Shown here: piece by piece, positions 1 to 48,359 of the stretch
Layout: every line of letters starts with the position of its first letter
Position numbering within the stretch: position 1 is the first letter of the stretch
Source of the DNA: Raillietiella orientalis
Taxonomy: Eukaryota
Length of the DNA: 64,000 bases
Assembly: GCA_036172245.1 (NCBI GenBank)
Contig: JAYWIR010000084.1
Coordinates: forward strand, 124,001-188,000
Direction: 5' to 3'
The notes under the pieces: model-generated
The model's database searches: none
What the model was told of the DNA's origin: nothing
What the model saw: only the letters and a program-made list of their open reading frames with translations
Translations under genes and position numbers: made by a program

Positions 1-291
1 TCTCTGTTGACACAGTCAACAGCGAGGGGAGCGAGCCGGCGGCGGCGTCCGTCATCGACACCACCATCGATGAAGTAGCCTTCGCGCGAGCCGCAGAGAA
101 GCTGGCAGCTTCGTTGCAGCCAGAACCCTCCAAGGCTGGCAAGAAGGCCGTAAGGCGTCCGGCCTCCCCTCAGGAGTCCCCCACTTCCGACCCCAAGGTG
201 GAGGCCGGAAGCGCAGCCTCCGTTTGCACGGCACCGCGCAAGAAGGCTGGACGTAAGTCCACAAAGCCAAGGAAGCTCGTCTCCCCCGTCG
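1..291 (+). mobile_element. C-terminal part of an A-family LINE ORF1 (duplicate of 3654-3944), cut by the window edge
   Basis: Near-identical to 3654-3944 (about 5 substitutions by eye). Encodes ...ELAASLQPEPSKAGKKAVRRP...KPRKLVSPV and ends in the same GTCTCCCCCGTCG junction sequence (279-291). Confidence 0.9.
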
Positions 292-2395
292 TTATCACCC
301 GGGTACGCCCGGGGTGTTTATTAATGAACTTTACATGCGTGGTACAAGGTCCCACCACGGCCGTAAACACAGGACCTGTCGGGACACCGGGACGCAGCCC
401 TGCATGGCACTCCCCGACAGCGAAGAAGGATGGGGATAAGACAAAAAGAAAAAGAAAAAGAAACAAACAAAAAGAAGTTGGAGGGCAGGGAAGGGATCAC
501 TGTTCGCTGTGGAGAGGGACCATCCGTCGAACGAAGCCCTCGAGGTCAGTCTGCATATTCCCCAGTTGGGGCCATCCGGCAGCTCTTCGCAAGAAGCGTT
601 GGGCATACGGGATGACATCCCTCGCCTGTGGACCCACTCCTTCGTTGTTGGCGTCGCTCCATGCCGCCACGATGCCACGGACGCAGCACAAGGCTGCGAT
701 GGCTGCGGCTGGCTGCAGTGCGTCCTTCACGAAGAGGGGCCGAAGAACGTCTCTGGGGGTGCTGCCCGTAGGGAGCCCGAGGGTCGTCCCGAACCGTTCC
801 CAAAGGGGTCGGAGGGCAACACAATCCACAATAAGGTGGGGAAGCGACTCCCGCTCCCCGCACCTGGCACACGCAGGATCCACAGCTCCCCTCGTCCAGT
901 GGAAGCGGCGCGCGTTGCAGGGTAGACCCCAGTGCAACAAAAGCAACGCCGACTCTTGCCACTTGAGGGGCAGGATCCTGGATTCTTTCATCACCGGGGG
1001 CCACTTCAGCTCATCCCTGGGGATGGCGAGCAGCTCGCCCCCTTTTTAATAATGCTCGCGGCTGGACGCTCGGGCTCGTGGCGTCAGCCAGTTCTCCTGT
1101 TGTCCAGCCGCTGATCAACTTCTCGCGTCCATCGTTGCAGCAAGAGACTTGCCACCTTGGCGTCCGGCTGCTGTGATGTGCCCTCTTCAGGAAGGGCAGC
1201 GCCGTAGCTAGACAGGTCGTCTCTGCCCACGTGCATCTTGCTGGACTCTCCAGGAGATTCCGCAGCGTGCAGCGGGCGTAGGGGCTGTATCGGAGACGAT
1301 TCCACGTCTCGTGGCTTGTCTGGTTAACCACTTCTCACGTTCCAATATTTTCCTCCAGCCAGGCGGGGGAGTTGGCGGGGCAGCAAACCATCCAGCTGTT
1401 CTCCTTGGCCAATGTTGCCATGCGCCCGAGCAGTAGGCCGCATCTTCGCATCTTCCGGCCACGGCTGAGAAGAAAAGACGCGAGTCCATCGCACCAGGAC
1501 ACACGGCTGGCCAGGAGGCGGGCTGGAGTGCACCAAGGGGTGCACCACATCTTCGCTGCGATGGCGAGGGTTCGCCACCGCAGCTGCTTCTCACGCGCTC
1601 CAGCGTCAGGAGGCCAAGACCGCCGTCCCGACGCGGAGCGCACAAGTCCTTCAGAGGCACTCGGGGCCTACCCTTGCCCCAAAGGGCGATACGGAGGAGG
1701 TCCTCTGTCCTCTTCTTTGTTTCCACGGTGGGGAGGCAAACAAAAAGCAAGGGGCAGAGGATGGGGGCCGCGAAAACGTTCCAAACCGCGGCCCATTCCT
1801 GCAAGTGGAACTTGCCTTCCAGGAACGGGCCCATCGCCGTCTCGTCTTTTTGAAGGCAGCTGGACCACGCTTCCGCAGGGGAGTATTCCCCCAACGGCAC
1901 ACCAAGGTACTTGAAGCACCTCGCCGTGGAAATCCCCAGACGGAACCAGTCCTGCTGCCCTGCCCACGCGGCACCTATTGGCACAACCGACGACTTCGCC
2001 CTGTTAACCTGCAGTCCGGTCCTGCGGCTGAGCAGATAGAAGAAGTCTCCAACCGCGTTTAACGGGGTGGACATTGGCAACAAGAGCAGAAGATCGTCGG
2101 CGTACGCTGCTACGGCGGGCGTGCCGGGGCACAGGCTCGGCAATGGGGCCAAAGTCACCCTTCACGCTCTCAGCACCAACTCAAAGTAGGTGCTGAAGAG
2201 CAGGGGGCTGAGGCTATCTCCCTGCCTTATGCCCCGCCGCACCGGCACGCCATACACCTTGTGACCGCTGAAAGAGACGGTAATTATCGCATTCCGCCAG
2301 CAAGAGCGCAGGTAGGAAATCAGGGAGGGTGGAAAGCCCATGCGACCCAGGAGCTCCAAGAGGAGTTCCTGGTCTACACAGTCGAACGCCTTGTG
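292..2395 (-). mobile_element. 3' half of L1/Tx1-like element B: RT from KAFD onward, zf-RVT-like C-terminus, 3' UTR (the distal part may be a B/D recombinant)
   Basis: Minus-strand translation gives HKAFDCVDQELLLELL, GIRQGDSLSPLLF, YADD (2093-2104), FKYLGVPL and CARCGERESLPHLIVDC, with stop at 497. A T-rich 3' UTR follows, with a terminal hairpin at 296-316. Contains stops and frameshifts. Confidence 0.92.
2382..2395. repeat. Left 14-bp TSD of element A (TCGAACGCCTTGTG)
   Basis: Exact copy at 9366-9379 and the flanking bases differ. On the minus strand it reads CAC AAG GCG TTC GA (H-K-A-F-D) of B's RT. Confidence 0.95.
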
Positions 2396-2406
2396 CGCTC
2401 TAGGGC

Positions 2407-2413
2407 GGACGTG
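2407..2413 (+). promoter_or_regulatory. GGACGTG motif near the element 5' end (DPE-like, putative internal promoter)
   Basis: The same heptamer occurs at the 5' ends of C (14330-14336, -) and B (12898-12904, -). It matches the RGWCGTG downstream promoter element described for Drosophila LINE promoters. Function is inferred. Confidence 0.45.
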
Positions 2414-3931
2414 CTTTCTCGGTGCTCCTCATGCCAGGAAGTCTCCCCCAGTGCAAGCGTCGTGTGGTTCGGTGGTCGATCAGGCAGCGATGCCTGACGC
2501 GACCACCAGGGATGGCCAGGGGGCAGCGGCAATGCCGCCCCCAGAGGCGATGGAGAGCCAGGGGGCGGCGGCAACGTCGCCCCCAGAGGCGGTGGAGGTG
2601 GGGGCATCCGCCCCCACAGATTCGGTCCCCGCTGCGGCGCTGGCATGAAGCGCCGTTGTGTCGGCGCCATCGCCTGCAGCCGCGGCGGAATTGTCGTCAG
2701 ATGGGGAGGAGGCGGCGAATCATTGTTCGAATAGTGGTAGGCAATTTGTGGCCCTGGAGAGCGCGCGCGCCTTCTCAAAGGGCATGCGCGCTCTCGATGT
2801 GAAAGAGGAGGAGCTCAGCGCTATGACCATCCGCAGCGGGGGTCAGTACGTTGAGGTCATCTGCAAACATGCAGAGCTGGCCCAACGACTGCTTAAAACC
2901 CCCGTTGTGATGGGGACGCGCAGGCTCCTCCCCACTACGGCGGACCGCAGCATGGTGGTCCACCTGTTAGGCGTCACCGCGCGAATGCGCAAAGAACAGG
3001 TTCGCGCCGCTTTGGAACAGTTCGGAACGGTCCACGCGCAGTGGACGAAAGTAAGTCCTTTCGAGAACTACACGGGGCTGCAACACGGCCTCACTGCTGC
3101 GCGCGTGACCGTTCGGGAAGGCTGCACTTTTCCCCACAAACTGGTGGTCGAAGGCGAAACCGTCGACCTCTGGTATGTGGAGAAGCCGAAATACTGTGGC
3201 TTCTGCAATACGTCGGGCCACCTCAAAAAGAGGTGTCCCAATGTGCAGTGCCAAGTATGCGGCACAATGGACCACACGAGGGAGGTGTGCCCAAAAGCAG
3301 CAGCGCGGGTGGTTTCCAAGAGAAAACTTTAAAAACGCGCCCGGCTTCTGCAGAAAAGGCTGGCGGCGAAAGCTCTCGCGAAAGCTGTGCCACCCGCGCC
3401 CAAGCCCAGGCCGCACCCGAGACCCCGGCGACCAACGCCGAAAAAGTTGAGGGAGGCGGCCAGGAGACTGGGTGGCAAGTGGCAACGGCCAAAAAATTAA
3501 AGAAGGAGAGGAGGATGGAAAAGAAAATCGCCTACCAACAGAAGAAGAAAGAGCAGGGTAGCGCGATAATTAAAGACTGCAGCGTCGTTGTCGAACGCGT
3601 AATCGATGTTGCCGAACGCTGCCGGAAAGAACTAGCCGCTACCGACGACCTCTTCTCTGTTGACACAGTCAACAGCGAGGGGAGCGAGCCGGCGGCGGCG
3701 TCCGTCATAGAGACCACCATCGATGAAGTAGCCTTCGCGCGAGCCGCAGAGGAGCTGGCAGCTTCGTTGCAGCCAGAACCCTCCAAGGCTGGCAAGAAGG
3801 CCGTAAGGCGTCCGGCCTCCCCTCAGGAGTCCCCCACTTCCTACCCCAAGGTGGAGGCCGGAAGCGCAGCCTCCGTTTGCACGGCACCGCGCAAGAAGGC
3901 TGGTCGTAAGTCCACAAAGCCAAGGAAGCTC

Positions 3932-3944
3932 GTCTCCCCCGTCG
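3932..3944. repeat. Left 13-bp TSD of element D (GTCTCCCCCGTCG)
   Basis: Exact copy at 5337-5349. Confidence 0.95.
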
Positions 3945-5336
3945 TTATCACCCGGGTACGCCCGGGGTGTTTATTAATAAACTTTTCATGCGTGGTACAA
4001 GGTCCCACCACGGCAGTAAACACAGGACCTGTCGGGACACCGGGACGCAGCCCGGCGTGGCACTCCCCGACAGCGAAGAAGGATGGGGATAAGACAAAAA
4101 GAAAAAGAAAAAGAAACAAACAAAAAGAAGTTGGAGGGCAGGGAAGGGATCACTGTTCGCTGTGGAGAGGGACCATCCGTCGAACGAAGCCCTCGAGGTC
4201 AGTCTGCATATTCCCCAGTTGGGGCCATCCGGCAGCTCTTCGCAAGAAGCGTTGGGCATACGAGATGACATCCCTCGCCTGTGGACCCACTACTTCGTTG
4301 TTGGCGTCGCTCCATGCCGCCACGATGCCACGCACGCACCACAAGGCTGCGATGGCTGCGGCTGGCTGCAGTGCGTCCTTCACGAAGAGGGGCCGAAGAA
4401 CGTCTCTGGGGGTGCTGCCGGTAGGGAGCCCGAGGGTCGTCCCGAACCGTTCCCAAGGGGGTCGGAGGGCAGCACAATCCACAATAAGGTGGGGAAGCGA
4501 CTTCCGCTCCCCGCACCTGGCACACGCAGGATCCACAGCTCCCCTCGTCCAGTGGAAGCGGCGCGCGTTGCAGGGTAGACCCCAGTGTAACAGCAGCAAC
4601 GCCAACTCTTGCCACTTGAGGGGCAGGACCCTGGATTCCTGAAGAAGCGGGGACCACTTCAGCTCATCCCTGGGGATGGCGAGCAGCTCGCCCCATCTTA
4701 CTAATGCTCGCGGCTGGACGCTCGGGGTCGTGGCATCGGACAGTTCTCCTGTTGTCCAGCCGCTAATCAACATCTCGCGTCCCTCGATGCAGCAGGAGGC
4801 TGGCCACCTTGGCGTCCGGTTGCTGTGAAGTGCCCTCCTTAGGAAGGACAACGCCGTAGCTAGGCAGGTCGTCTGTGCCCACGTGCATCTTGCTGGACTC
4901 TCCAGGAGATTCCGCAGCGTGCAGCGGGCGTAGGGGCTGCATCGGAGACGATTCCACGTCTCGTGGCTTCTCTGGTTAACCACTTCTCACGTTCCAATAT
5001 TTTCCTCCAGCCAGGCGGGGGAGTTGGCGGGGCAGCAAACCATCCAGCTGTTCTCCTTGGCCAATGTTGCCATGCGCCCGAGCAGTAGGCCGCATCTTCG
5101 CATCTACCGGCCACGGCTGAGAAGAAAAGACGCGAGTCCATCGCACCAGGACACACGGCTGGCCAGGAGGCGGGCTGGAGTGCACCAAGGGGTGCACCAC
5201 ATCTTCGCTGCGATGGCGAGGGTTCGCCACCGCAGCTGCTTCTCACGCGCTCCAGCGTCAGGAGGCCAAGACCGCCGTCCCGACGCGGAGCGCACACGTT
5301 CTTCAGTGGGACTCGAAGCCTCTCCTTGCCCCAAAG
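3945..5336 (-). mobile_element. 5'-truncated LINE copy D (ORF2 C-terminal region plus 3' UTR) inserted antisense into A ORF1
   Basis: Encodes LWGKERLRVPLKNVCAPRRDGGLG ... CARCGERKSLPHLIVDC, with stop at 4150. AATAAA plus hairpin at 3949-3975. Flanked by the 13-bp TSD. Confidence 0.93.
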
Positions 5337-5349
5337 GTCTCCCCCGTCG
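5337..5349. repeat. Right 13-bp TSD of element D
   Basis: Exact match to 3932-3944. Confidence 0.95.
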
Positions 5350-5565
5350 AAGGGGAAGAGATGGCTTCCGCAAGCGAGGGTGCCATGAGCGTGGGAAACT
5401 CTCGGGACCCGTCGCCCGAGAGACTCCCAAGCTCGGACACGCAGGGGATGGAGGGGTGGAGGCCGAACAGGTTCCTCAGGTGCCTGAGAAGGCCGAAACA
5501 CCCATGGAAATCCCGGCCGCCTCGCAAGAGGAGGGCTCCCCCACACCTTAATCTTCCCAGCAGTA

Positions 5566-8500
5566 ATGCCGGGAATCTCATCCCGCCTTCGTCTGCGCAT
5601 CGCCGTTTGAAACGTGAACGGCATGACAGACGCCGGCAGGAGACGAGACGTGGCCGCCCTTCTCGAGTCCTACGACCTTGCGCTGCTGCAGGAGATCCAC
5701 GTGATCTCTGCAGAACAAGCACAAGAGATCGAACGCATCTCCGGAGGGTGGCTATGGTACAGGTGTGGGAGACCGAAAAGTTGCGGTGTCGCCTACCTTC
5801 TTCGGCCAGCCGCCGAAGACGCAGCTCGGGGCGTGCGGTTCGACGATCACGGTCGTGTCGGCCAGCTGACTCTCAGGTGGTCCGACTCGATCGACCTGAT
5901 CGTCACGAACGTGTACGCACCGAGCGGCGCGGACCTGATGAACAGGAGGGCGAAGAAAGAGTTTTTCCTTGCCATCCGTCGAGACTGGCTGGCCGAAGCA
6001 CGCGTGCGGAATGCCCATCTGGTTGCAGGCCATTTCAACGTTCTCCTGAAACCAGATGGGCGGAATCCCGAGCGTGAGCTGGTCAACGAGGTGTGCATGG
6101 CGGTGCACACCTGTAATTTGTTAGCCAGTGTACCGGGGATGGAAGACAGCATTGACCACGTGTTTCTTCACGAGCACCTGTGCCCTCGCGTGGGCAGGCG
6201 CGGCAAGTTACCGTGCGAGCTGTCCGACCATCGCCCGCTAGTCCTCGAGATTTATTCGCGCGACAGGGGCCCCCCCTCGTCAGCGTGGCGTCTCCCAAGG
6301 GACTCGATGAAGCACCCGGACGCGGCGGAACATCTCCCCACGTTCATACGGAGCTTCAGGCTGCGGACGCTCCAGGATTCGGACCGCTTCAAGCGGTCGG
6401 TCCAGGAGTTCTGCGACCAGTTCCCTCCGCACCGCCTACCTACGGGTTTTGGGACCGGGGTCCGTAACGAACGAGCCTACCTGCAGGCCCGTCTTTACTC
6501 CAGGACCCCCGACATCCGCAGGCTGGTGGAATACAAAGTGGGAGCAGAGAGGCAAGCCTGGCTGTCCGGATCGGCCAGCTTACTGGACGATCAAGGCCAG
6601 GAGCACTCGACACATGCTTAAATCCGCGGCCTGCTGCGGAGTTACTTCTCCTCCCTGTATGCCAGGGCACCTCCGGAGAGGAACGTCTCACGACTCCTGC
6701 TTCTGGAAGGCGCTCCAGCGATCGGGAAGGAGCAGAGGAAGATCCTCGACGAGCCTTTCACGATGGACGAGATCCTCTCGGCCATCGGAAAGCTCACGAG
6801 GCGAAAGGCTCCAGGGGAGGCGGGCCTGCCCGCGGAGTTTTATCAAACTTTCCCGGCTAAGCTTACCCCCCTGGTACTGCAACTTACCTTGCTGATACGC
6901 GAAACAGGTGACGTTCCCGCCTCGTTTCGTTCGGCAAAGGTGCGGCTCCTTCCTAAGAGAGGAGATCTGAGGAGCATGAACAACTAGCGTCCCTTCACAA
7001 TAGTGAATGCGGACGCCAAGTTGCTGGCTAAGGTTTGGGCAGAGCGTATGGGACGGGTTGCCAACATCTTCATCAGCCCGGAACAGACATATGCTGTTCC
7101 CGGGCGAAGCATGGAGGCGAACCTGTTCCACGCTTCCACCTGGCTAGAGCTCCAACATGAAAGGAGCTTGGTGCGCAGCCGGAATTCCGGTGCGCGCGCC
7201 TGCAAGGGGTTGGATGGTCGGGTGGGTTAGGGAGCCCTTGCGGTCGCAATCGAGTTGCAAAAAGAATTCGATTGCGTCGACCAGAATCTCCTTCTGGAGC
7301 TCCTGGAACGCTTGGGCTTTCCGGTCTCATTAGTGGCCTATCTGCGCTCCTGCTGGCGCAACGCGCTCATCAATGTTACTTTCAGCGGGCAGACCGTGCA
7401 CGGCGTGCCGGTGCGGCGTAGGATCCGGCAGGGAGACAGCCTGAGCCCCTTGCTCTTCAGTACCTACTTTGACATGGTACTGAGAGCATACAGGGAAACT
7501 CTGGCGCACCTGCCGCACGACTGTGCCGGTACGCCGGCCGTTTCAGCATACGCGGACAACCTTCTGCTGCTGCTCCCTATGTCCACCCCGCATGCGGCGG
7601 TCGAGGAGTCCTTCGACCTGCTGCATCGGGGAACCGGACTTCCGGTGAACAGGGCGAAGCCGTCCGTGATGCCAGTTGGTGCGGCGTGGGCAGGGCTGCA
7701 GGACTGGGTCCGTTTGGGGATCTCCACGGTGAGGTACTTCTAGTACCTTGGTGTGCCGTTGGGGGACTACTCCCCTGCGGAAGCGTGGTCCGTCTGCCTT
7801 CAAAAAGTAGAGACGGCAATCGGCCCGTTCAGAGGCGGCAGGTTTTTCTTGCCTGAACGGTTTCCGGTTTGGAACACGTTCGCGGCTCCTCTTCTCCGCC
7901 CCCTGCTTTTTGTTCGCCCCCCCACAGAGAGGATTAAAAAGCGGACAAAGGACCTCCTCCGTATCGCCGTTTCGGTCAACGGGAGGGCCCGAGTCCGCTT
8001 AAAGGACTTGTGCGCTCCTCGTCGGGATTGTGGTCTGCGACTCCTGACGCTGGAGCGGCTGGAGCTTCAGCTCCAGTTCCGCTTGTCGGCACTCGTTCCA
8101 GAGTTGTGGTGCACCTGTTGGTGCGTCCCTGCACGTGTCCTTCTCCAGCAAACCACCGGCAAGACGGGACTGACGTCGTTTCTTGCACTCCGTCGCCGCG
8201 CCAACCGATGCGGACTCCAGCTTCAAAAGGTGGCTGCGCTGTATCGGAAAAACCCAAGATTGCTCACCTGTCGCCCGTTTAACGGTAGTTTCTGGTTGCA
8301 GGAAACCGTTCGAACGTGGGGACGGTTGGGCATGCAACGCTCCCAACAGGAACGAAGGTTCCTGTTTTGGGGTTACAGAAGTTGCACGCTCCGCGAGATC
8401 CTGGAGGATCCAAAGAAGAGAGCGTGGGCAGGAAAAACCCCCCTCGCTGCTGCGCTGCCCTCCCTGATGGAAGATCTGGACAGCGATGTTGCGGCGAAGT

Positions 8501-9146
8501 GGGTGGTTACAGTAACAATCTCGGAAAAGGAGAAGAAGATAGGAGAGTGAAAGACGGGGCAGTTAACAGACGCTGCGACCCCGAGTACGCCTCCCAATGG
8601 ACTTCTGCGCTGAGGCGCGCTGCTCGATGTTCCCATTGAACATCTGAAGTGGCCCCGGTGCTCATGAACACCTCCGCCCTCCCCTTAAAATGGCAGGAGT
8701 CGGCTCTCCTGTTGCAGCACTGGGGACTCCCCTGCAACGCCCGCCGACACCGCTGGACCTGGGGAGCGGTGGACCCCAATTGCGTCAGGTGTGGGGAACG
8801 GGAGTCCCTCCCCCACCTGCTAGTGGATTGTGTTGCCCTTCGGCCCCTTTGGTTTCGCTTTGCCGCGGCCATCGGAATCCCCTGCGGCAACCCCAGGGAC
8901 TCACTCAAAGCCCTCTTCGTTGCCGACGCCCTTCGGCCAGCGCCCTCGTTAGCAGCTTTGTGCTGCCTACGCGGGATCGTCACCGCTTGGAGCAAGGCTA
9001 CGGTAGGACAACGCGACCAGAGTGCCATCCAGCCAGCCTCCCAGTTCCTGAGGAGAGCGTCGCGATGGCCCCACCTGGATCCAAGCATGCAGAAAGAGCT
9101 TGCCGGCATCCTGCGAACGATTCAACGGCCCCACCAGCAACTCTGA
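5566..9146 (+). pseudogene. Element A ORF2: AP endonuclease, reverse transcriptase and zf-RVT-like domain (inactivated)
   Basis: ATG at 5566. EN motifs (W>stop)NVNG, LLQEIH, NVYAP, AGHFN, IDHVF, SDHRP. RT motifs APGEAGLPAEFY, N(W>stop)RP, KEFD, IRQGDSLSPLLF, YADN (7549-7560), YLGVPL. C-terminal CVRCGERESLPHLLVDC. Several in-frame stops and one frameshift near 8645. Confidence 0.93.
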
Positions 9147-9334
9147 TCCCTACCCGTACCCTCCCAGTTTTTTTCTTTTCTTTTTGTTTTGTTTTTTTGT
9201 TTTCCCCCTTCCCTCTGCTGCCGTGGTGGACCGTGCCGGTCTGAGAACCGGTGACCCGGAAGGCTCTGTGTTTCTTCGTGCGTGGCTGGAGCAATGGTCC
9301 AGCCACCGCACGTCTTTGTAATAGTTTATTTTCC

Positions 9335-9365
9335 AATAAACGCCCCGGCGGTAGCAGGGTGAAAA
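9335..9365 (+). other. LINE 3'-terminal signal: AATAAA, GC-rich hairpin, short A run
   Basis: AATAAA CGCCCCGGCGGTAGCAGGGTG AAAA immediately precedes the TSD. Related hairpins occur at 296-316, 3949-3969, 16437-16456 and 49173-49192. Confidence 0.75.
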
Positions 9366-9379
9366 TCGAACGCCTTGTG
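9366..9379. repeat. Right 14-bp TSD of element A
   Basis: Exact match to 2382-2395. Confidence 0.95.
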
Positions 9380-11065
9380 GAGATCGACTGCGAGCTCAAG
9401 GGCCCCCTTCCCGCACGGGGTCCCATCCCAGCCCGGTTGGCGGCCCCAATGTGGGGTTGCTGACTTTCCCTATCCCTTTCTTTTCTCTTCTCTGCAGGTG
9501 CACCCATGTGCTTGCGAAGAAGAGGTTGGCATCCATACTTCGCCCGGGAACAGCATAAGTCTGCTCCGGGCTAATTACGGATTCTGCCACCTGCCCCAGA
9601 CGCGAAGCCCATAGCCCTGCTATCAACTTGGCGTCCGTATTCACGATTGTGATCGGACGCCAGTTCTTTAAATTCCTGAGGTCTCACCCTTTCGAAAGGA
9701 GCCTCACTCTGGCTGACCGAAACGAGACGGGAACATCGCCTTCGTCTCGGATCAGCCTGATCAACTTAAGCAGCAGGGGTGCCAGCTCTTCCGCGAAGCT
9801 CTGAAAGAACTCCGCGGGCAAGCCGTCTTCCCCTGTAGCCTTACGCCTCTTGAGCCTTTTGATACCGCCGAGAATTTCGTCGGTGGTAAAGAGCTGCTCG
9901 AGGCTTTCCATCTCCTCCTCCCCTATTGCCAAGGCGCCATCTGGAAGCAAGCGCCGAAAGGCGTTTCGATTCGGGGGCTCCGTGGCGTAAAGTGAGGAAT
10001 AAAAACTCCTTACGAGATGCCGTACCGACGCCGGTGACGAACATTCCCGGCCCTGGTCGTCCAGCAAGCTGGCCGACCCGGATTGCCAGGCTTGGAGTTC
10101 GGCCCCGGGGCGGCACTCGGCCAGGCGACGGATATTAGAGGTTCTCTCGTACCTACGAGCCTATAAACAGGCCCGATGGTTGCAAACACCCTCGCCAAAT
10201 TCGGGAGGCAGGCGATCAAGGAAGAACTGCTCACACAACTTGCGCACCGATTCCTTAAAAAGTTCCCAGTCCTGGAGATTCCGGAGCGTGACGCCTCTCA
10301 GGTATTCGCGAAGGTGTTTCTTCGCGCCTGGGATTCGCGTCCAGCCCCCCGGCAGACGCCAATCCATCGATTGCGGTCCCTTGTCACGAGGCCGCATCTC
10401 GAAAATTAACCGGTAATGGTACGACAACGTCGACGCAACCCTCCCCCGTTTGCCGACTTGTGAACACAGTTCAGCGTCGAGGAAGACCTGCTCGATGCTG
10501 CGGACCATTCCCTTCTCACCCGCGAACAAGTTCCACGCACGCATGGCGGCGCACAACTCGTTCATCGCGTTTTCTTGTGTTTCTGGCTCACCTGTTAGCA
10601 GACGGAGATTGAAATCTCCCGCTATCAGGAGAGCCTTCCGCACGCCTGGGTTCGCCAGCCAGTCGCGCTTCAGGGATTCAAGCAGCCTGGTACGGTTGCT
10701 GTATCCCTTTTGAGGCGTACACATTCGTGACGATCAGATCGATCGAGTCGGACCAGCCGAGTCAGCTGACCGACCCGACCGTCGTCATGGAAGCGCACGC
10801 CCTTCACGGCAGCGTCGATGGCCGGCTTCACGAAGAACGCGACCCCGCAAGTGTTGCGGATGCCGCATTGCCAGTACAGCCGAACTCCCGGGATCGTCTC
10901 GATCTCCTCGACGTCTGCCGCGGTAATCACGTGGATCTCCTGCAACAGGGCCAGGTCGAGCTCACGGAGGGTGTCGGCTGTATCTCGCCTGTTTCCGTCG
11001 TCGCGCAGTCCGTTGGCATTCCAATAGGCGGCGCGAATCCGACGGCGACTGGGGAGCCCAGGTGT
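9380..11065 (-). pseudogene. Element B ORF2 N-terminal part (AP endonuclease and RT domains up to KAFD)
   Basis: Motifs YWNANGL, LLQEIH, IAGDFN, ATGEDGLPAEFF, NWRPITIVNTDAKL and EQTYAVPGRSM. Contains frameshifts and stops. Confidence 0.9.
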
Positions 11066-12818
11066 TACTCCTGGGAAGATGGCAGTGCGGCGTCCGCAAC
11101 CTGCTAAGGCGAAACGCTAGGTGGAGGAGGGGGTCGGGTGCTGAAGGCACCTGGTCCCCCTCCTCCATAGGAAACTGTACGTCGAACGGATCGCCCACAG
11201 GTGGGGTCGCGCCTACCTGTTCGCCCTCCTGCATGGAGGCGGGCTGTTCAGGGTCGGCGCCTGCAGGGGGGACTTCACCCCCCTGTTCACCCTCCTCCAT
11301 GGGGGTTTCCGGATCGACGGCTTCCGAGCGTGGGATACCCTCCTCCGAATTTCCCACGCTGGCGACGGCTTCCGTCTTCTCCTCCTCGCTGGTGGAGGGG
11401 AGGCGCCTCCTGGGCATCTGGGAGTTGCGTCCCGACTTCCTGGGGGGTGCCTCCGAGGAGGAGGAGGGTGTACTTCCGGACCCCAGGTCTAACTCACCTG
11501 TGGGGGCCTTCTTCTCCGGAGCCGGCCTTCGCACGGCCTTCCGCGAGGGGTTCTCACGTTCAGCCAGCGTGACCGCGAGCTCCTCCGCCGCCTGCTCGAA
11601 CGCGGCGTCCGCGGCTTCGACCGCCGCTATGTCGCGCGGCTCACTCTCTGTGTAAACAGAGAATTCGCCGTCGCGAGCCTCGGGTGCAGCGGAAACGGCA
11701 AAGAAAGGATCGATGCTCCGGGTGGCAATCTCGGGAACGACGATTCGTTCCATTGCCACCGTGCACTCGCGTAGAGTTTTCGAGCGCGGAACGGGTTTTT
11801 TCGGCTTACCGATCGTCTTGCACCCTTTGCTCTCCGCGGGTGAGAGTTTCCTTGGCTTTCTGGCCTCTACAAGCTGCCATCCCTCTTCGCCTTCCACCGT
11901 TTGAGAAGGTTTATCCTCCGGCTTACGCGCCGGAGGTTGAGGTGTTGGCAGCTTGTGCTGGCCCTTTCCTACTTTAGGTCTAGAGACCTTTAAAGCGCGT
12001 TTCCCCTGCGCTTTTTTCGCGGCAGGGGGAACCGGGGTGGGGCGTTTGGGGCACACGCGCCGAACGTGGCCCCGCTCCCTGCACAAATGGCATTGTATAT
12101 TGGGACACCTTTTACGTAGGTGTCCCACGGTATCACAATGCCCGCAATACCGGGGCTTCCCTACATACCACAGGTCGACGTTTTCTTGCGCCACCTGTAG
12201 TTTGTGGGGAAGCCTACAATTCTCCCGTACGGTGACCCGCGCTGCAGCCTGCCCACCAAAAAGGCTATCAAAGCCGTCGAAAATGGAGGGTTTCGGCCAC
12301 AGTGCGTGCACCTCACCGTACTTCCGTAATTCCACACCAACCGCTGACCGCGTCATGCGGCTGGTGATGCCAGTCATGTGGACCACCACGGAGCGCTCCA
12401 TTGATACTGGCAGGATCTTTCGGCCGTCTACGTTCAGCGGCGCATGGATAAGGCGATGAGCCAAGGTGACATCTTTGCAGACCACCACGACCCACTGCCC
12501 GCCGCTGAGGACGGAGAGGCCGTCCAGATCCTTCTCTGTGACATCCGCGTCCTTCAACGCTTTGCTGAAGGCGCGCGCTGTCCGGCCGTCAAACAAGTAG
12601 CCTACCTGGTACACAAGCGAAGGCTTGCACCCGGAGGCCTTGTATGCGGCCATCTCCGCCATGGCTTCTGCGCTGGGCGCGGCCACCATGGCGCTCCATG
12701 TCCTCGGCGTGGCCGGGGATGATTCCGGGGCGGCTGCCCCTGCTCCAGTAGGCTGTGGGGGCGAACTAGCCTCCCCAACTCCCACCTCCATCGCGGTGTC
12801 CTCTGGCGTCGTGGCCAT
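11065..12818 (-). CDS. Element B ORF1, gag-like nucleic-acid-binding protein with two CCHC knuckles (open except a probable frameshift near the C-terminus)
   Basis: ATG at 12818 (MATTPEDT) with long open frame and knuckles CGHCDTVGHLRKRC and CHLCRERGHVRRVC. The presumed original stop (PSSQE-TAA, 11065-11067) is now out of frame, so the frame reads to 10962. Confidence 0.75.
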
Positions 12819-12904
12819 TGGACACCGACGATGTACACAAAACACCACACAGAAGAAAAAGCGCTTTCCTACTACTCTTTGGGGAGTGAAGGAAAAACAC
12901 GTCC

Positions 12905-14347
12905 TCCTACTGGCCGCGGAGGGGTCTGGCTGCAACGATGCAGCCAGCTCCTCCACCGCACGCTCGAAGGCGGAGTCATCGATCACGGTCTCGATGACGG
13001 ACGATTCCGCTGGTTCGCTCCCCACGCGGTTGACATTTTCAACAGTGGATAGCTCGTCGGCAGCAGCGATTTCTACCTTGCAGCGTTCGGCGGTAACGCG
13101 TTGCACGAAGACGCTGCATTCTTTCAAATTCTTGCTAACCTGCTGTTTTTTATTTTGGTAGGCGTGCTTTTCTTCAGTTCGTGGTTCTTTCTTCGACCTT
13201 TTTTTTTTCGGTGTGGCTTCTTGCCATTCCGACACCTGACCGCTTTTGTCGATCTTTTCGGCATTCGTTGCAGGGGTTTCGGCTGAGGACTGGACCACGG
13301 GAGCGGGTGGCACAGCTTGAGCGGCAGCCTTCGCCGCCAACCTTTTCTGTAGCAGCCGCGCGCGTTTTTTTAGGTTCCTCGCGCAAACTACGCGCACCGC
13401 GGATTGTGGACACACTTCCTTCGTGTCCCATTGTCCCGCATACCTGGCACTGTACGTTGGGGCACCTCCTTTTGAGGTGTCCCGACGTGTTGCAGAAGCC
13501 ACAGTATTTGGGCTTCCCCACGTACCAGAGGTCGACGCTTTCTTAGCCGACCACCAGTTTGTGGGGAAGGGTAGAGCCCTCTTGAAGGGTTACACGGGCA
13601 GCCGTGAGGCCGCACTGAACTGTGGTATAGTCCTCGAAAGGACTAGGCTTGGTCCATACTGCATGGACCGTGCCTTCTTTTCCCAACGCGGCGCGTAACT
13701 GTTCTTTCCGCATCCGTGCGGTAACTCCTAAAAGGTGGACCACCATACTGTGGTCCGCCGTAACGGGAAGGAGCCTGCGTGTCCCCATCACCACGGGGGT
13801 TTTGAGCAGACGTTGGGCCAGATCTCCATGTTTGCAGATCACCTCTATGTACTGCCCCCCGCTACGAATGTTCGTTGCGCAGAGCTCTTCCTCTTTAACA
13901 TCGAGAGCGCTCATTTCCTTCGAAAAGCCGCGCGCACACACAGAAGAATACAAATTTCCTACTTTGTAGAATAGTGATGGGTTACACCCCTCTTCTACAT
14001 AGGCAGATAATTCCGGCGCGGTTGCAGGCGATGGCGCCGACACGACGGCGCTCCACACCCGCGCTGCAGTGGGGACCGGTTTTGTGGGGGCGGACGCCCC
14101 CACAACCTTCTCCACTGAATGCGACGTTGCCGCCGTCCTTTGGCACTCCAACTTTTCTAGAGGCGACGTTGCCGCCTGCACCTGGCAGTCCATCTCTTCA
14201 GGAGGCGACGTTGCCACCGCCCCCATACACGCACTGGTGGTCGTGTCAGGCATTGTTGCCTGATCGACCACCACCACACACGAAGCCTACACCTAGGGAC
14301 GGTTCCCGGCACGAAGAGCACCGAGGAAACACGTCCGCTCTAACCGA
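12905..14347 (-). mobile_element. 5' part of element C (A-family): 5' UTR and ORF1 up to ...SLQPDPSAAS
   Basis: The 5' UTR aligns with 2396-2489. ATG at 14253 (MPDTTTS) and knuckle CGFCNTSGHLKRRC. Clear ORF1 homology to A, with two frameshifts (about 13545 and 13425). Confidence 0.9.
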
Positions 14348-16460
14348 CGTATAGCTTTCGATTCCTTCGACCAGGAGCTCCTTCTGGAGCTGCTGGAACG
14401 CATGGGTTTCCCTGCCGTGCTTCAATCTTACCTGCGCTCCTGCTGGCGCAACGCCTCAATTAATATTGGTTACAGCGGCCGGCACGTGTACGGCGTGCCA
14501 GTGTGCCGCGGCATCCGACAGGGTGAAAGCCTGAGCCCCTTGCTCTTCAGCATCTACTTCGAGTTGGTGCTGAGGGCATACAGGGTAACTCTGGCAACGC
14601 TGCCGAGCTCGTGTGCCGGCACGCCTGCCGTGTCAGCCTATGCAGACGATCTTCTGCTGCTGCTTCCCGGGTCCACAGCAACGTGTACGCTCGAGGACTT
14701 CTTCGAGTTGCTGCGCCGCGGCACGGGCCTGGAGGTGAACAGGGCGAAGTGATCGATGGCTTGTGTTGGCTCGGCGTGGGCTGGACGGTCGGAATGGATC
14801 CGCTTGGGGATCCCCACGGGCATGTGCTTCAAGTACCTTGGCGTTCCCTTGGGAAACTTCTGCGCAGCAGAAGCCTGGTCCGACCGTCTCCAAAAGGCAG
14901 CGTTCGCGATCGGTCTGTTCCAAGAAAGCAAGTTCTACTTGAAGGAACGGGCCGCGGTGTGGAACGCGTTTGCGGCCCCCCTTCTTCGCCCCCTACTTTT
15001 TTTTTGCCCCGCCCCTTATTTTGTTCGAAAAAGAGCAGCGGGTTTCCTGAGCACAGTCTTTTGGGGCAAAGGGAGGTCCCGTGTGAGGCTCAAAGACTTG
15101 TGCCCTCCACGTAAGGACGGAGGACTTGGCGTACTTACGCTGTAGCGCATGGAGCTCCAACTTCGATTCAGGATTCTCGCTCTCGCGGTCGAATTGTGGG
15201 ACACGCCTTAGTGCGTTCCAGCACGCCTCCTCGCCTAACGAGCCTGCGGATTCGGCGGACTTAAGTCGTTTCTGCTGGCGCGCGACCGCAGAGAAGCACA
15301 CAGCGGCTTTCTGCTGCGTCGCATGTACGTAGTAGTACGGGAGAACGCCTGGATCTCCTGCCTCCCAGGGAACTACTCGGCATGGTTGCACGAGTCAGTC
15401 TCCACCTAGGAAAAGATCTACGTACCGGCGGGCACAGAGAACACTTGCCTGAAAAGGCATGCTTGCTGGGCGCTGCAGGAGAGCGTGCAGTCCCACGACA
15501 AGCTTATGTGGACTTTGATAACCCCCTTGCTCCAGCGCTGCCATTTTTCATCAGTGCCAGGGACAGTAAAGAGCTGGGTAAATGGACCGTGTCCTGCACC
15601 GTAAACGAGAGGACACAAGCGATAAAGGCGTGAACTTCTCGGCAGTTGGCAGACGCTGCGTCCCCGAGTGTCCCGCCCAACGGAATACGACGCTGGGGCG
15701 AGCTACTCGGACTATTTCCGGAGGACATGAAGTGGCCCCCAGCGTCCTGGAACAGTGCATTCCTCCACCTGAAATGGCAGGATGTGGCGTTGCTTGTGGT
15801 ACTCTGGGGATTAGCATTCAAAGCACGCCTGCACCACACCACCCGGGGTGCTGTGAATCCTAATTGTGACCGGTGTGGGGAAAAAGAAACATTCCCCCAC
15901 CTTTTCCTTGAGTGCAGCGCCCTCCACCCTTTGTGGGATTGTCTCGCGGGGATCCTGGATTTGCGCGGATGCGGTCCAAAGGACGTTCTGAGGCGCCGCT
16001 TCTGCAGTGACGCCTTGTCCCCGCTCGCTAGTGTAGCAGTCCTCTGCTGCATCAGAGGAATAGTGGCGACCTGGAACGCCACCAGAAGAAGGCGTCAGCC
16101 AACCGGCAACGCCTTACACTGGACTCGCCTTTTCGCGCTCAGAGTCTGCAAGTGGCGCCACTAGGGCGCTGAAAGGACTCAGCTTGTGCGGATCCTGAAT
16201 AGGATGTAGACGACCTGTCCACGCGCACCGTAATCCCTTCCCCACCCTCCCACCCCTACATTTGTTCCCCCCCACATTTGAACTTTGTGTTTCTTTTTGT
16301 TTTTCTTTATTTCCCATCCCCGCGCATCGGAAGGACCTCTCCGGCATGGAGCCAGTAACCACCAACCTGTTTTGGAGTGGTGAACCTTCGAGTTGCCACG
16401 CGACATTTCGATGTAATTTTATTTCAATGAAAGAAATGCCCCGGCACATCCGGGTGTGAA
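14348..16460 (+). mobile_element. 3' half of L1/Tx1-like element E (RT from AFD onward, zf-RVT-like motif, 3' UTR)
   Basis: Begins RIAFDSFDQELLLELLERMGF, then GIRQGESLSPLLF, YADD (14639-14650), FKYLGVPL and CDRCGEKETFPHLFLEC. T-rich UTR, with hairpin at 16437-16456. Confidence 0.9.
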
Positions 16461-19400
16461 TCGTCTACCGCGTCAATGGAGAGAAGTTTTGCTGACGTTG
16501 ATGCCACAGTAGCCGTCAAAGGGGGACCATCGGACGAGTCCGAGTTGCGGGCATACGTAACCCAAGGCTATAGACCTGCTCTCCGATATAAGGTGAGTGG
16601 TTTTCTTTCTGCGCGCGACGGGAATCAGTTCAACGAAGAACTGACCCGTGTTGGCGTGCGGGAGGACCCCCTCGCCATTATACTCGTAAAGGATATGGGC
16701 TATTTCAAGGTGCGTTGCAAAGACGCTGCACTTGTGCAACGCTTGCTGCGCACAACGTTGTCGATACGTGGCCAGAAGGTCTTCCCGGCCGCCATGGATG
16801 ACTCATTCGTGGCGAAGATTTTCGACATCGAGTCCGAAATCTCTGACATTGATATTCGGAACGCGTAGGCGAAATTCGCCACGGTCCATGCGCTGTGGAG
16901 GGTGCGTAGCAGCCTCAAGGACTTCCCGTCCATACACAGCGGAGTCGCTGGAGTCCGGATTACAATGCCGGACCGCCGTCTGCTACCCACAAAACTACAT
17001 GTGAAAGACACGGTTGTTCACCTGTGGTTCGTAAGCAAAGTAAGAACGTGCGAGCAATGCGGGAAGGAGGGGCATTGTTTGGATAAATGACCCTCTGGAA
17101 AATGCCGTTATTGCAAACTATCCGGGCACCAATTGAAAAATTGCCCCGATCTTTTGCGTAAAAAGGCAGCCGCGCAGCTCCATCTTAAGAAACAAAGCGC
17201 GGATAAAAAGATAAAATCTGCGAAAAACCTGGAGACCCCACGGCAGAAATTCCGAAAAAACGCGAGGCGGAATGTCGCCCCAAAGCAGCAGGAAACCTCG
17301 CATGCGAAGCCCTACGCGCCCCATCTCGCGGCAGGAAAGCCGCAAAAGAAAGGGTCCGCGGAATCCGGGGCAATGGTAAGTCCCCCTAGGCGCAATTGCG
17401 GTCCATCCCAAGCACGTCCGGCTCTCTCAAAGTTCGAACAACCGGCGGGGACGCCAATGGACAACGGCGGTAAGGACACTTCCAGCACCGTCAGATCCAT
17501 TCCTTTACCTCCTGCAGTGGCTGAAAAGCCCAAATCGGGTAAGAAGATTTGTGTTCTGTCGACTTCGAAAGTCGGCAAAATAAAATCCTCGTCGCGGTCC
17601 AACACCGCTAAAGCGGAGAAACCTCTCACGCCGTCGCAGTCGGAGAGCAAGCTGTCGACTGGCGCGGATGCCATGCCAACGAAGGGATTAAAAGCCTTTC
17701 CGATGGCAGCGTCCATCACGAGCGTGTCCGAGCCATCGAAAGACTCCCGTCCAAAGACGCGGATGGCTTCAAAGATGGCAATGAAGCAGAATCTCCATTT
17801 ACAGCGCCACGCAAAGTGAGGAACCGTACTGAAGTAAAGAAGACTTCAGCAAAGGTCCCTCGTGCAACTGCGCGTAAGCACGCTGAAAACGAGCGCGCCG
17901 GGAAAGCAGCCGTCACCAAAAGCGATGCACTGGTGACGCAAAATGACAACAGGACAGCTGTCAATCCAGCAGAACCTGTCACTACCTCGCGGAAGGCCGA
18001 AACCCGATCGAACATGCGCCGGTCGGACTCTGAAATGGATGCCGTTCCGCTCACCGAGACGAGGACAACTCGTTCCAAAGCATGTGCGCGCCGATCAAAA
18101 GTAGGCAGCCAGGCAACGCTCCCCGCGAAACAACGCGACGTTTCAACGAAACCCGACGGGGTTAAGCCTGGCGTGGAGGCATTACATGCATTCAGCACGA
18201 CGGAGGACGGTGGCGACCGTCCCCTCCAGCCAGTCGTGCTGCTCCCCGTCTGCTGGCCGGATAAAGCGAGCCAAAAGCCGCCACCTTCCCAGCAGGAATG
18301 CGGGCAATCGCGTCTTCTCGTCCTCTGTCCGTAACGTGTTGGAACGTGAACGGACTACAGAACGAGAAGAGGCGATTAGTAGCCAACGCTCTGCGCCCCT
18401 TCGACTTCGCGCTCCTGCAGGAGATTCACGTAATCTCCGACGAGCAGGCAGCCGAAATCGAGGAGCGCGCAGGCAGAACGCTACATTAGCGGTGCGGCGG
18501 CGCACACACGTGCGGCGTCGCGTTCCTCGTAAGAGCAAAAATGGCGGAAGCGGTGCGTAGAGGCGAACATCCTTTTCGCGTGTACATGGATGCAGCTGCA
18601 GGAAGTCGTGACGCAGAAAAGCCAGGATGCTGCGAAAGTCACAGCCGCAGGAAAGAAGAACAAGCGCCGACGGCAGGAGGAAACGACAGGTGCCTTGGCG
18701 GTCGCGGTCGATCTCCACAAGGCGTTAGACTGCGTAAACCAGAAGCTGCTCTTGGAGCTTATGGAACGCCTTGGGTTCCCGCCGCAACTCCTGCTGTATT
18801 TGCGCGCGTGCTGGCGCCACGCGCTAACCTGCATCACTTTCAGCGTCTGCCGCGTGTACGGTATTCTTGTGCGTAGGGGCATCCGACAGGGCGACAGCAT
18901 AAGCCCGCTGCTCTTTACCATCTTCTTAGAGTTGGTGCGAAGAGCATACAGGCTGACGCTGTCTCACTTGCCATGCTCCTCCCCGGGTATGCCTCCAGTG
19001 GCCGCCAACGCTGATGACCTGCTTCTGGTCCCCATGTCCAACCCGGCGTCCAGTGTCGAGGATTTCTTCGACCTGATTCGTCGGGGAGCGGGCGTGAGCG
19101 TGAACAGAGAGAAGAGCGTGGTCGTTCCTGTGGGTGCGTCGTGGGAGGAACAGTCCGACTGGATCCGCCGGGGGATCCCCACAAGCGGGTACTTTAAGTA
19201 CCTTGGCGTTCCGTTGGGCGCTCTCCGCGCAGTCGAAGCGTGGTCGGACTGCCTACAGAAAGCAGAGTTGCCGTCAGCCCGTTCATCAACGGCAAGTTTA
19301 TCTTGCAGGAACGGGCGACTATTTGGAACACATTTGTTACCCCCCTCCTCCGTCCCCTCTTTTTTGTTTTGGATCCCCCCTATGCGGCAAAACAGCCGGC

Positions 19401-20700
19401 TAAACGCATGCTTAGGAACGCTCTCTGGAGTCCGGCGAGATCCAGGATAGGCCTTAAAGACTTGGCTGCTCCACGTCGGGATGTTGGCTTTGGTATCCTG
19501 ACAATGGAGCGAATCGGACTGCAGGTGCAGTTCCGACTGCTGGTGCTGTGTGCCCAGCTGTGGACATCCCCCCTCTGTGTGCCTGCACGCATTCTCCTGA
19601 GAAGATGCGCCGGCAGCGGAGGACTGCTCTCGCTTTTGCCGGGCACTCAATACAGGAAGCGAGGTTTTGGGTTTCAATTGCGGCAGTTGACCGCACTTCT
19701 GGAAGCCCAATCCTGGATCTCCTGCCGCCCAATAAACTTCGAAGCTTCGAGGCAGGTGTCTGTGGAATCCTGGGAAGCGTTCCAAGGAATGCGCCCTGAA
19801 GATCTTCGCCCACTGCGCATCTTCTTCCGCGATCTTTGGAAGAAGTACTGCAGGACGAGGTGAAGTTTTCTACCCTGGCTGCCACGCCTCTCGCCGCAGC
19901 GCTGTCTGCTTTCAGGGCAAGAAACGACAGCTGCCAACCGGCAAGGTGGGAGGTTTCCTGCACGATAGCGGGGAAAACAAAACTCCTTGGCGCCTGGAAG
20001 ACAAGTGATTTGGCGGACGCCGCAAATCCTCGTTGTACTTCAAAGGGAGTCCTCCGGTGGGCAGAAGAATTTGCTGTCACCTCCGAAGAACTTGTAGTCC
20101 CTCCACAGTGTGTTGACAGTGCGCTGCTCCCCCTTGCTTGGAAACAAGCCGTGCTGCTCTTCGTTCACTGGGGTTTTCAGTGCAGAGAGCGTTGGCATCG
20201 AGACTCCGGGGGACCTGCAACTGCGTTCTGTGCGGGTCGACGGAGTTCATCCTGCACTTAATTCTGGACTGCGGTGTCCTACAAGGGCTGTGGCGTAGGT
20301 TGGCAACAGCACTAATGCATCCCGTGGACACCGCAAGAGACTTGCTGCGACGATTCTTCACGCCGAGCGGGCTGTCCCTAAGCGCAAGGATTGCAACCAT
20401 CGGTTTCATACGCGCGATAGTTTCCGTCCGCCAGGCGTTGGTAATCCACGGGCAGCACCAAGAGGTAATCAGCAAAGCATCCTTCTACTTGGGAGCAGCC
20501 GCTAGATGGCTTCATTTGACAGAGGAATCAAAAAGGAATCTCGCCGAAATATACCGCCGGTTCACACACGCTCAGCAGCGGCCAACCCGGTGATCATTGC
20601 CCTACCCTCCATAAACTAATTTTGTATTTTCTTTTTACAGCCGCGTCCCCATAGTCTCCGGAACATTTCAGGTGCTCCCCGTTGAAATCCCCGTGAGTAC
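16461..20700 (+). mobile_element. Decayed L1/Tx1-like element F: 5'-interrupted ORF1, ORF2 with internal deletion of about 1.3 kb, 3' UTR
   Basis: ORF1 has knuckles CEQCGKEGH and CRYCKLSGHQLKNC. ORF2 ATG at 18298 (TCWNVNGL, LLQEIH), then jumps at about 18560 to EANILFACTW, VDLHKALD, GIRQGDSISPLLF and NADD. Zinc motif CVLCGSTEFILHLILDC, stop at 20593. The 3' limit is approximate. Confidence 0.88.
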
Positions 20701-29429: not shown

Positions 29430-29950
29430 ACGGGAAGCGATTACCGCCATTTGTTCTTCAATATTCAGGCAGGGCCAATTATAACAAGCATTTGAAAGAT
29501 GCATTACTAAACATATGTTCAAAGATTTTCGGGATTTCTCATGACCCTGCTTTCCATGAATCGGCAAAGAGGTGCAGGGTTGACGCTGAGCAAGTGCTAC
29601 ACCCTCGGGGTGCGCCTTGACGTATCCCATGCCACCTACCAATATGATGGCATGAAGGTCATCCTCCTGCAGGTTGACACAACCTAGCTCATCGCAGTGC
29701 TGGTCACCGTCACGACCTGAAATCATCTGCTTCAACCTGCCGCGGAGTGCGAGCTTGTAGCCTGAGGCTAGCTGATTCGGCAACTCTGCACCTTAAGAAT
29801 GTGATTCCTTGGCTGCCGCAACTGTAGCAGCGTCGGCCCAACTCCTCACCGGTGACGAGAAAGTTCCGGGGGAGTCGTCCGTCAGTTCTGCCGCAGGAGC
29901 GGAACGTTGGTCGATTTCAGCGACTTCCATCAGTTGCTATAGCCATGCCA
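29430..29950 (-). mobile_element. LINE ORF1 N-terminal remnant related to element F
   Basis: RSWADAA...ASGYKLALRGRLKQMISGRDGDQHCDELGCVNLQEDDLHAIILVGGMGYVK aligns with F ORF1 GYRPALRYKVSGFLSARDGNQFNEELTRVGVREDPLAIILVKDMGYFK. Confidence 0.7.
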
Positions 29951-47961: not shown

Positions 47962-48351
47962 CTAGGCGCCCCGATCTGAGTCGAACAAGTTGACTTCCGA
48001 ATACACAGGGGTTATCGGACGCCAGTTGTCTCGATGGCGCAGATCTCCGCCTCTCGGCATCAGATGCATGTTCGCTGAGCGCAAGGAGGCTGACACATTG
48101 CCCGTCTGCCTACTCAGCGTCCGAGCGGGACGGACGTGTATTTCCATCGCTCCGTTGGTGCATCCGATTTTGCGCTTGCGATGTGCCAGTGCGTGCCTAT
48201 ATGGACAAGTGGCATCCACAAGCGGAAAAGCTAAAGTTGTTTCCGTCCTCGTGATGACAAAGTGGCCACAGAGGGACAACAACTCGTTTCGGCGCAGGCG
48301 GGAACTTTTGCTGAGTCGTTGCCGCCGAGGCAGCACACGGAGGGATGCCAA
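47962..48351 (-). mobile_element. LINE RT N-terminal fragment
   Basis: GNVSASLRSANMHLMPRGGDLRHRDNWRPITPVYSEVNL is homologous to A/B GDVPASFRSAKVRLLPKRGDL...NWRP. Confidence 0.75.
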
Positions 48352-48359
48352 ACACGCGT

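Follow-up and report, generated by a model that had tools for sequence, protein, structure and literature searches.

Nested insertions of related L1-superfamily LINEs over 20.7 kb of a Raillietiella orientalis contig

A window of 64,000 nucleotides from Raillietiella orientalis (NCBI GenBank assembly GCA_036172245.1, contig JAYWIR010000084.1, positions 124,001 to 188,000 of the forward strand) carries coding pieces of long interspersed nuclear elements (LINEs) on both strands across positions 1-20700. The question raised by this locus is how six related copies, here called A to F, came to lie against and inside one another, and whether such elements enter their own relatives by preference. DNA and protein self-comparison together with mapping on one full-length copy showed that pieces of L1-superfamily retrotransposons lacking long terminal repeats (non-LTR) account for every segment of 1-20709, as the initial annotation, made from the sequence alone, had claimed for more than 20 kb without non-LINE DNA. 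The resulting cluster of 20.7 kb has a GC content of about 60% in flanks of about 43%, with values of 54-62% within positions 1-20000 of the window and 37-55% beyond 20000.

Insertion of A into B and of D into A

The 14-mer TCGAACGCCTTGTG was found at positions 2382 and 9366 only, and its two copies (2382-2395 and 9366-9379) are the target site duplication (TSD) of A. This copy occupies 2396-9365 on the plus strand and is full length, from a 5' end with TAGGGCGGACGTGCTT (5' motif at 2401) through to AATAAA, a small hairpin (9343-9365) and TGAAAA. It sits antisense in the reverse transcriptase (RT) gene of B, whose two RT halves form its flanks on the minus strand. To the left, 1686-2395 hold the RT of B from the KAFD codons on downstream (translation HKAFDCVDQELLLELL..YADD), ending in the left TSD copy of A; to the right, 9366-12905 begin with the other TSD copy and hold the N-terminal part of the RT, the endonuclease (EN), the first open reading frame (ORF1) and the 5' untranslated region (UTR). 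With A and one of its TSD copies taken out, ...VDLHKAFDCVDQ... is restored in B, and the RT so joined reads ..AVDLHKAFDCVDQ.., matching the ..AVDLRKAFDCVDQ.. of an intact relative, the metagenome protein P0003. The ORF1 of B is open from an ATG near 12820 to 10965, the 5' end lies at about 12905, and the 5' part of this copy is 65.9% identical to A over 1598 columns.

The 13-mer GTCTCCCCCGTCG was found at 279, 3932 and 5337 only and is the TSD of D, the copy at 279 belonging to a duplicate described below. D spans 3945-5336 on the minus strand, antisense in the ORF1 of A; it is truncated at its 5' end, running from the C-terminal part of the RT to the 3' end, and finishes in a like hairpin and TGATAA (3' motif 3945-3967). 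Its left TSD copy (3932-3944) lies within the ORF1 of A. When D is excised, this ORF1 is restored, in frame from 5350, and its continuation (..SVGNS..) is homologous to the uninterrupted ORF1 of B. The 5' end of A, its 5' UTR and most of its ORF1, decayed and with frameshifts, are thus at 2396-3944, and the end of ORF1, ORF2 and the 3' UTR with AATAAA and hairpin are at 5337-9365. ORF2 of A has the EN from about 5590, the RT with KAFD at about 7258 and a Cys-rich domain at 8640-9143; it follows a single frame over 5611-8547 with four in-frame stops, and one more stop is in the codon before NVNG. In X1, the sole public run (DNA) that shares words with the region (share 0.10; no RNA run was listed as sharing them), a contig joins 278 to 5337 through 13 shared letters and so presents an A-like ORF1 without D; being one contig at 90% likeness, it lends weak support. 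Exact TSDs of 13 and 14 bp and reading frames that rejoin after excision prove both nestings, D in A and A in B, in agreement with the initial annotation.

The elements have a common layout of about 5.6 kb, in which an ORF1 with two putative CCHC knuckles is followed by an apurinic/apyrimidinic endonuclease (APE), the RT and a Cys-rich C-terminus; their TSDs are 13-14 bp, and they end in a small conserved hairpin and WNAA, not in a long poly(A). Among 111 stop-to-stop frames of at least 100 amino acids from 1-22000, LINE domains were the sole Pfam matches, apart from one weak CCHC match, AIR2-like_ZnK4 (CCHC zinc knuckle) in the ORF1 frame of A, whose E of 0.0045 falls under its own Pfam cut-off. 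RVT_1 was matched in four frames, at 7231-7740, 14297-14749 and 18533-19447 on the plus strand and 1211-2161 on the minus strand, with 44.8, 46.7 and 39.8 bits against a cut-off of 29.6 and one weaker match of 19.1 bits; the YADD box of the RT is present in the alignment as 'AYADDLLLL'. The domain zf-RVT was matched at 8640-9143 and 15634-16161 on the plus strand and at 500-1045 on the minus strand, slightly below its cut-off (25.2 and 25.0 bits versus 27.5), and Exo_endo_phos was matched in B at 10673-11116 on the minus strand (27.8 bits versus 24.5), with homologous N-termini in A, F and Y. Two CX2CX4HX4C motifs were read in the ORF1 of B, and none of the Pfam knuckle families was significant.

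At the 3' ends, A, D, E and a copy at 49169 have CCCCGG-N-C(C/A)GGGTG-WNAA in common, and a search with this motif gave 8 matches where 1.5 were expected. All pairs of the hairpin except one are invariant, so that covariation gives it next to no support. At their 5' ends, A and C have exact matches to the motif TAGRGSGGACGTGYTT; the 5' end of B, diverged, resembles it by eye and was not among the search matches at up to 3 mismatches. Three of the six nest copies are full length at the 5' end. All copies are decayed by stops or frameshifts, only the ORF1 of B being open, and the copies are 65-78% alike, a pair at 96% apart. An open frame of 875 amino acids (10965-13589, minus strand) combines the last part of one ORF1 with a 5' UTR and a complete second ORF1 that bears the two CX2CX4HX4C knuckles. 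Tandem repeats of 42 nt were observed in the N-terminal part of ORF1 in A (2515-2597, 2.0 copies) and, on the other strand, in C (14121-14219, 2.4 copies); this head is variable and of low complexity, and the ORF1 of F is without it. In its present state the locus amounts to a cluster of decayed repeats, and nothing in it points to current activity or to a function for the host.

Single junctions and the left edge of the nest

Three further junctions each set a complete, family-typical 5' or 3' terminus against the interior of another copy, and they lie where the initial annotation had placed them. At about 12905, the minus-strand ORF1 of C breaks off in mid-sequence and the 5' end of B follows, while its homologue in A continues for about 400 nt. 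C (12906-14347, minus strand) thus comprises a complete 5' end (5' motif 14327-14342), the 5' UTR and ORF1 until the cut by B, and it maps to A coordinates 6-1389 with 74% identity. At 14347/14348, the complete 5' end of C (TAGAGCGGACGTGTTT) abuts the oppositely oriented RT of E, a copy of which 14348-16460 on the plus strand hold the part from the KAFD codons (translation RIAFDSFDQELLLELL) to the 3' end, with RVT_1, zf-RVT, the 3' motif and a hairpin at 16438-16460. At 16460, the complete 3' terminus of E (..CCCCGGCACATCCGGGTGTGAA) abuts F, which belongs to a more distant subfamily and spans 16461-20709 on the plus strand, with ORF1, the EN from about 18340, the RT at 18533-19447 and the Cys-rich domain to about 20590; its 3' end at about 20709 is placed solely by the likeness of ..CCCCGTGAGTACGGAGCCTAA to the other termini. 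The ORF1 of F has an in-frame ATG at 16476 (MERSFADV), 15 nt downstream of the junction, which makes it doubtful that E interrupts this ORF1, as had been claimed; the insertion may be in the 5' UTR of F and leave ORF1 uncut. A contig of 3755 letters in X1 spans 16461-18560 and continues for another 189 letters upstream of 16461; therefore, elements of the F type extend past that point.

LINEs lose sequence at the 5' end and not at the 3' end, and a complete terminus identifies the later arrival; therefore, the three single junctions are most simply read as the order F > E > C > B > A > D. Of the nest, up to six deep, that was initially proposed, the two innermost levels are thus proven, and the upper three (B in C, C in E, E in F) we infer from one junction each. 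The nest would have formed by successive insertions of related L1-superfamily LINEs through target-primed reverse transcription, F arriving first, then E, C, B, A and D, by elements that would often integrate as complete copies whose 5' end is defined. Each newcomer would have landed inside an earlier copy, so that no other DNA would stand between them. On this model, the sequence upstream of the window should contain the rest of C and its 3' end on the minus strand, then a TCGAAAGCTATACG-like TSD copy and the 5' half of E and, beyond it, a TCGTCTACC-like TSD copy followed by the 5' end of F.

C and E might also stem from one insertion event in F, during which twin priming, a process known from the L1 literature, inverted the 5' part (C); the nest would then be five deep. 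At 14347/14348 the 5'-most end of the inverted segment would meet the 5' end of the direct 3' segment, and the two pieces (A coordinates 1-1395 in C and 3458-5565 in E) do not overlap and hence cannot be compared with each other. However, the breakpoint falls within about 2 nt of the proven site of A in B, for which twin priming gives no reason, and we regard a single insertion as improbable.

The left edge of the cluster probably has a different origin. Positions 1-1685 are a copy of 3654-5337, 96.2% identical and including the junction of D with ORF1 and the TSD copy; therefore, the left edge of the nest was rearranged after insertion. Within it, 1-291 (plus strand) copy the ORF1 segment 3654-3944 of A, with 98.3% identity to A coordinates 1259-1549, and are closed by the TSD copy at 279-291, while 292-1685 (minus strand) duplicate the 3' part of D, with its C-terminal domain, 3' UTR, hairpin (292-314) and 3' motif. 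This D duplicate passes unbroken into the RT of B at 1686, the minus-strand frame 1211-2161 being open across 1685. The segment is a later duplication of 3.65 kb and not an insertion. D and the 3' part of B itself are like-oriented and 3.65 kb apart. The simplest account would be that unequal recombination or gene conversion between them duplicated a 3.65-kb unit, and such an event would agree with the initial prediction of possible further 3.65-kb units and the true 3' end of B upstream of position 1. An assembly error at this repeat may be an alternative source; the identity of the duplicate is patchy, with about 98% in 1-934, 87% in 935-1200, 99% in 1201-1644 and 80% in 1645-1685. This patchiness, along with the junction and TSD copy that both units have, also speaks for the duplication event.

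A shared reverse transcriptase site and a possible preference for relatives

A in B and C in E are both antisense at the KAFD position of RT motif A, with breaks within about 2 nt at the DNA level. The downstream half of B starts with HKAFD and that of E with RIAFD, and each abuts a full-length antisense 5' end. The two newcomers are of one lineage, each being the closest to the other (76.6% over 1382 columns of 5' UTR and ORF1, versus 53-56% to B). Their hosts are not sisters. Over 799 ungapped RT columns, identity is 77.2% for A-B, 71.2% for A-E and 70.8% for B-E, and informative sites favour AB|EF (35) over AE|BF (19) and AF|BE (17). All 14 positions in the TSD of A are intact, despite a difference of 27% between the two composites. 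Because the RTs of B and E are not sisters and the TSD of A is intact, A in B and C in E are two independent insertions.

The same sequences could in principle be copies of one old composite, in which the RT site had been entered once and which had later been copied as the inverted pair 1509-3784 and 12918-15235 (73% identity). A single blastn alignment of 2346 columns crosses both junctions, and the identities of B to E and of A to C are of similar order, as copying would have it. But composite ancestry needs B and E to be closest, while the RT of B is nearer to that of A, with 35 sites against 17; moreover, the 14-bp TSD of A is unmutated, and A is flanked exactly by the upstream half of B. 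The composite was accordingly rejected as the source of both junctions, and we hold it to be very improbable.

With two independent insertions, the chance that 2 of 6 would agree in orientation and, to within about 2 nt, in position on a 5.6-kb element is, by a rough estimate, near 0.007. Copies of the A/C lineage were at the RT site in 2 of 2 independent cases, and other lineages at varied sites. At least the A/C lineage would prefer one site, the KAFD codons of RT motif A, and enter it antisense. It is conceivable, though on balance doubtful, that this lineage is a site-specific parasite of its own relatives with an endonuclease that would recognise the DNA encoding RT motif A (..VDLHKAFD..). 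If so, RT motif A, as the most conserved stretch of any LINE, would be an always-available target, harmless to the host, and antisense entry of full-length A/C elements would inactivate the host copy and build self-propagating nests. The shared site would then be a simple, testable example of a LINE endonuclease aimed at a conserved coding motif of competing elements.

Overall, insertions with a readable target were in related LINEs in 6 of 7 cases (D, A, B, C, E and a further copy, Z), the 3' flank of F not being LINE-like. The insertion of Z is part of a second nest of L1-superfamily LINEs, older and more decayed, which was observed at 46509-51265. Z runs on the minus strand from at least 51031 down to 49169, by a tblastn map and the 3' motif, with its 3' terminus at 49169-49191, antisense in an F-like EN whose N-terminus (49053-49168, plus strand) is cut by this terminus. 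An F-like ORF1 piece (48377-48550, plus strand) and C-terminal fragments on the minus strand (46566-46919, 48589-48927 and 49525-49902) also lie in that nest. Isolated LINE fragments, one from the N-terminus of an F-like ORF1 and one from a Cys-rich domain of the C-terminus, were at 29547-29858 (minus strand) and 31988-32430 (plus strand). Outside the cluster, LINE similarity amounts to no more than about 4 kb in 43 kb (about 9%). Positions 20931-61126 are gene-poor; 58 stop-to-stop frames of at least 110 amino acids from that interval matched 0 Pfam families, and the whole window gave 0 Rfam matches.

Two tandem copies of about 810 bp, with 75% identity and no family match, were also observed at 25995-27612, where GC skew is strongly negative (-0.33 in 26001-28000). 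The CpG observed/expected ratio is about 0.8 in 20931-61126, an interval free of strong CpG depletion. Once rejoined, the target of A in the RT of B (9363-9390 with 2379-2395) reads CAGTCGA-N14-TCGACTG, with the insertion point between the arms of a 7-bp inverted repeat. A CpG-containing target motif that would be rare outside GC-rich LINEs was considered and rejected, the observed/expected ratio of CpG being 0.79-1.07 throughout and TCGA common in the flanks.

The initial annotation had seen in the cluster a strong preference for inserting into relatives. Such a preference is plausible in view of the 6 of 7 targets and the shared RT site, but a single window does not tell active targeting apart from passive accumulation in DNA rich in repeats. 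We consider it reasonably probable that the cluster grew by stepwise nesting and that its elements do favour relatives as targets, in the manner of Zepp clusters or of transposon-targeting Tx1 elements, the preference itself being something that we infer. Alternatively, the nest may have arisen without targeting, with LINEs piling up by chance in a gene-poor, repeat-tolerant region such as heterochromatin and the shared RT site reflecting coincidence or a hot spot of local DNA structure. This agrees with the absence of Pfam families from the long frames of 20931-61126, with the second nest and scattered LINE fragments in the window, with insertion sites of D, B, E and Z that differ in position, orientation and sequence, and with TCGA not being rare outside the cluster (3.0 per kb versus 4-6.5 per kb inside). 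It sits poorly with the low chance of two hits at one site in one orientation and with 20.7 kb free of foreign DNA next to the LINE-poor remainder of the window, and we judge passive accumulation to be unlikely, if still a serious competitor.

Several observations nevertheless weigh against stepwise nesting by preference. The window was chosen for its nested look, which biases the count of 6 in 7. The common site is claimed from just two events; in A, F and Z the RT carries no interruption at KAFD, and no clear motif links that site to the sequences entered by D, E, Z and probably by B. For B, C, E and F, the second junction falls beyond the window, upstream of position 1, and among the X1 matches listed none bridges the A/B, B/C, C/E or E/F junctions, although such unbridged junctions and parts of low cover in X1 were not used as evidence. 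Finally, the two flanks of B do not match, the left one being a plus-strand, A-like ORF1 (1-291) and the right one the minus-strand ORF1 of C (at 12906); therefore, the left side needs an extra event.

This inconsistency, together with the patchy identity of the 96% repeat, would also fit an arrangement that is partly an assembly chimera of similar repeats, above all at the 3.65-kb repeat of the left edge, and the single public run with its word share of 0.10 offers no independent check. However, misjoins do not bracket complete elements with exact TSD pairs, nor do they make frames rejoin, and copies that are 65-78% alike are too different to confuse an assembler, the 96% pair excepted. We therefore give little credence to a chimera and prefer stepwise nesting among relatives.

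Family placement and comparison with known systems

On sequence likeness, the family is best assigned to the L1 superfamily of APE-type non-LTR retrotransposons. With the ORF2 of A read through its four stops (P0033), a PDB search returned human LINE-1 ORF2p as the best solved relative; five LINE-1 ORF2p sequences had E values of 1e-36 to 1e-32 and R2 proteins 3e-11 or worse, a coarse comparison, as solved structures among LINE groups cover L1 and R2 only. Out of 1.84 billion representative proteins, 84 reached E 1e-30 with the ORF2 of A. Close relatives among the matches listed were two metagenome proteins, P0003 (68%) and P0036 (65%), the others being at about 24-35%, and a word-indexed protein search found P0003 alone to be close. 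Among the 20 best representatives, the named ones (turtle, Closterium, pseudoscorpion) are all distant, and four repeated stretches of about 30% identity inflate the score of the turtle match. Against named L1 or Tx1 proteins, identity was about 25-32%.

In a quick tree of 23 rows, built without curated L1, Tx1 or outgroup references, the ORF2 of the window and P0003 share a long, isolated branch that falls outside the L1 clade of angiosperms, and they join two fish proteins, one of them named TX1, only via an unresolved fork (SH-aLRT 90). The initial label, L1/Tx1-like, thus holds only as far as the L1 superfamily, with Tx1 as a candidate clade. In metagenomes, a protein-pattern scan for further copies gave 414 pattern matches, none of which was confirmed, and the 5'-end DNA pattern gave 0 matches; an atlas search with P0003 returned generic RT clusters only.

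Compared with human LINE-1 ORF2p, the elements have the same order of EN, RT and Cys-rich domain, but their ORF1 bears putative CCHC knuckles. In its small conserved hairpin and lack of a long poly(A), their 3' terminus resembles that of 'stringent-type' L1 elements; a monocot L1 lineage is described in one source as differing from the poly(A)-recognising plant L1s (PMC3472496).

The clusters of the L1 element Zepp in Coccomyxa subellipsoidea C-169 are described in the sources cited as nested, 1.5-42 kb long and growing by insertion in existing copies, with a GC content of 61% versus 53% for the genome and with tandem-like arrays of 3' parts, and Zepp-like (ZeppL) elements are described there for Chlamydomonas (PMC3446292, PMC8226300). 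A single cluster on each chromosome, at the presumed centromere, is a further trait of Zepp and ZeppL. The 20.7-kb nested cluster reported here, with its raised GC content and its 3.65-kb repeat, resembles those descriptions; the likeness is one of description and does not imply kinship. Unlike the compact algal genomes, the flanks here are gene-poor, and a further difference is that half of the copies are full length at the 5' end. If the preference for relatives is real, the locus would be a case outside the green algae of LINEs building GC-rich islands by entering their own kind, and such islands have been proposed as centromere components.

LINEs of the Tx1 clade, as far as the cited account goes, enter other transposons at a fixed position and orientation, examples being Tx1L in the piggyBac element Tx1D, Tx1-Mar in Mariner-N4_AMi and others in LTR or Harbinger elements (PMC4494074). 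The two A/C-lineage copies, antisense at one position of a related element, recall this behaviour. They differ in that the target would be the RT gene of relatives and not a DNA transposon, a small nuclear RNA (snRNA) gene or a microsatellite, in that there are two events only, and in that the other lineages of the nest have no fixed site. Nested LINE clusters such as Zepp and transposon-targeting Tx1 LINEs are already known, and by analogy the locus appears to behave like both; the unusual detail, and a lead, is that the RT motif-A codons of relatives may be the target of one LINE lineage.

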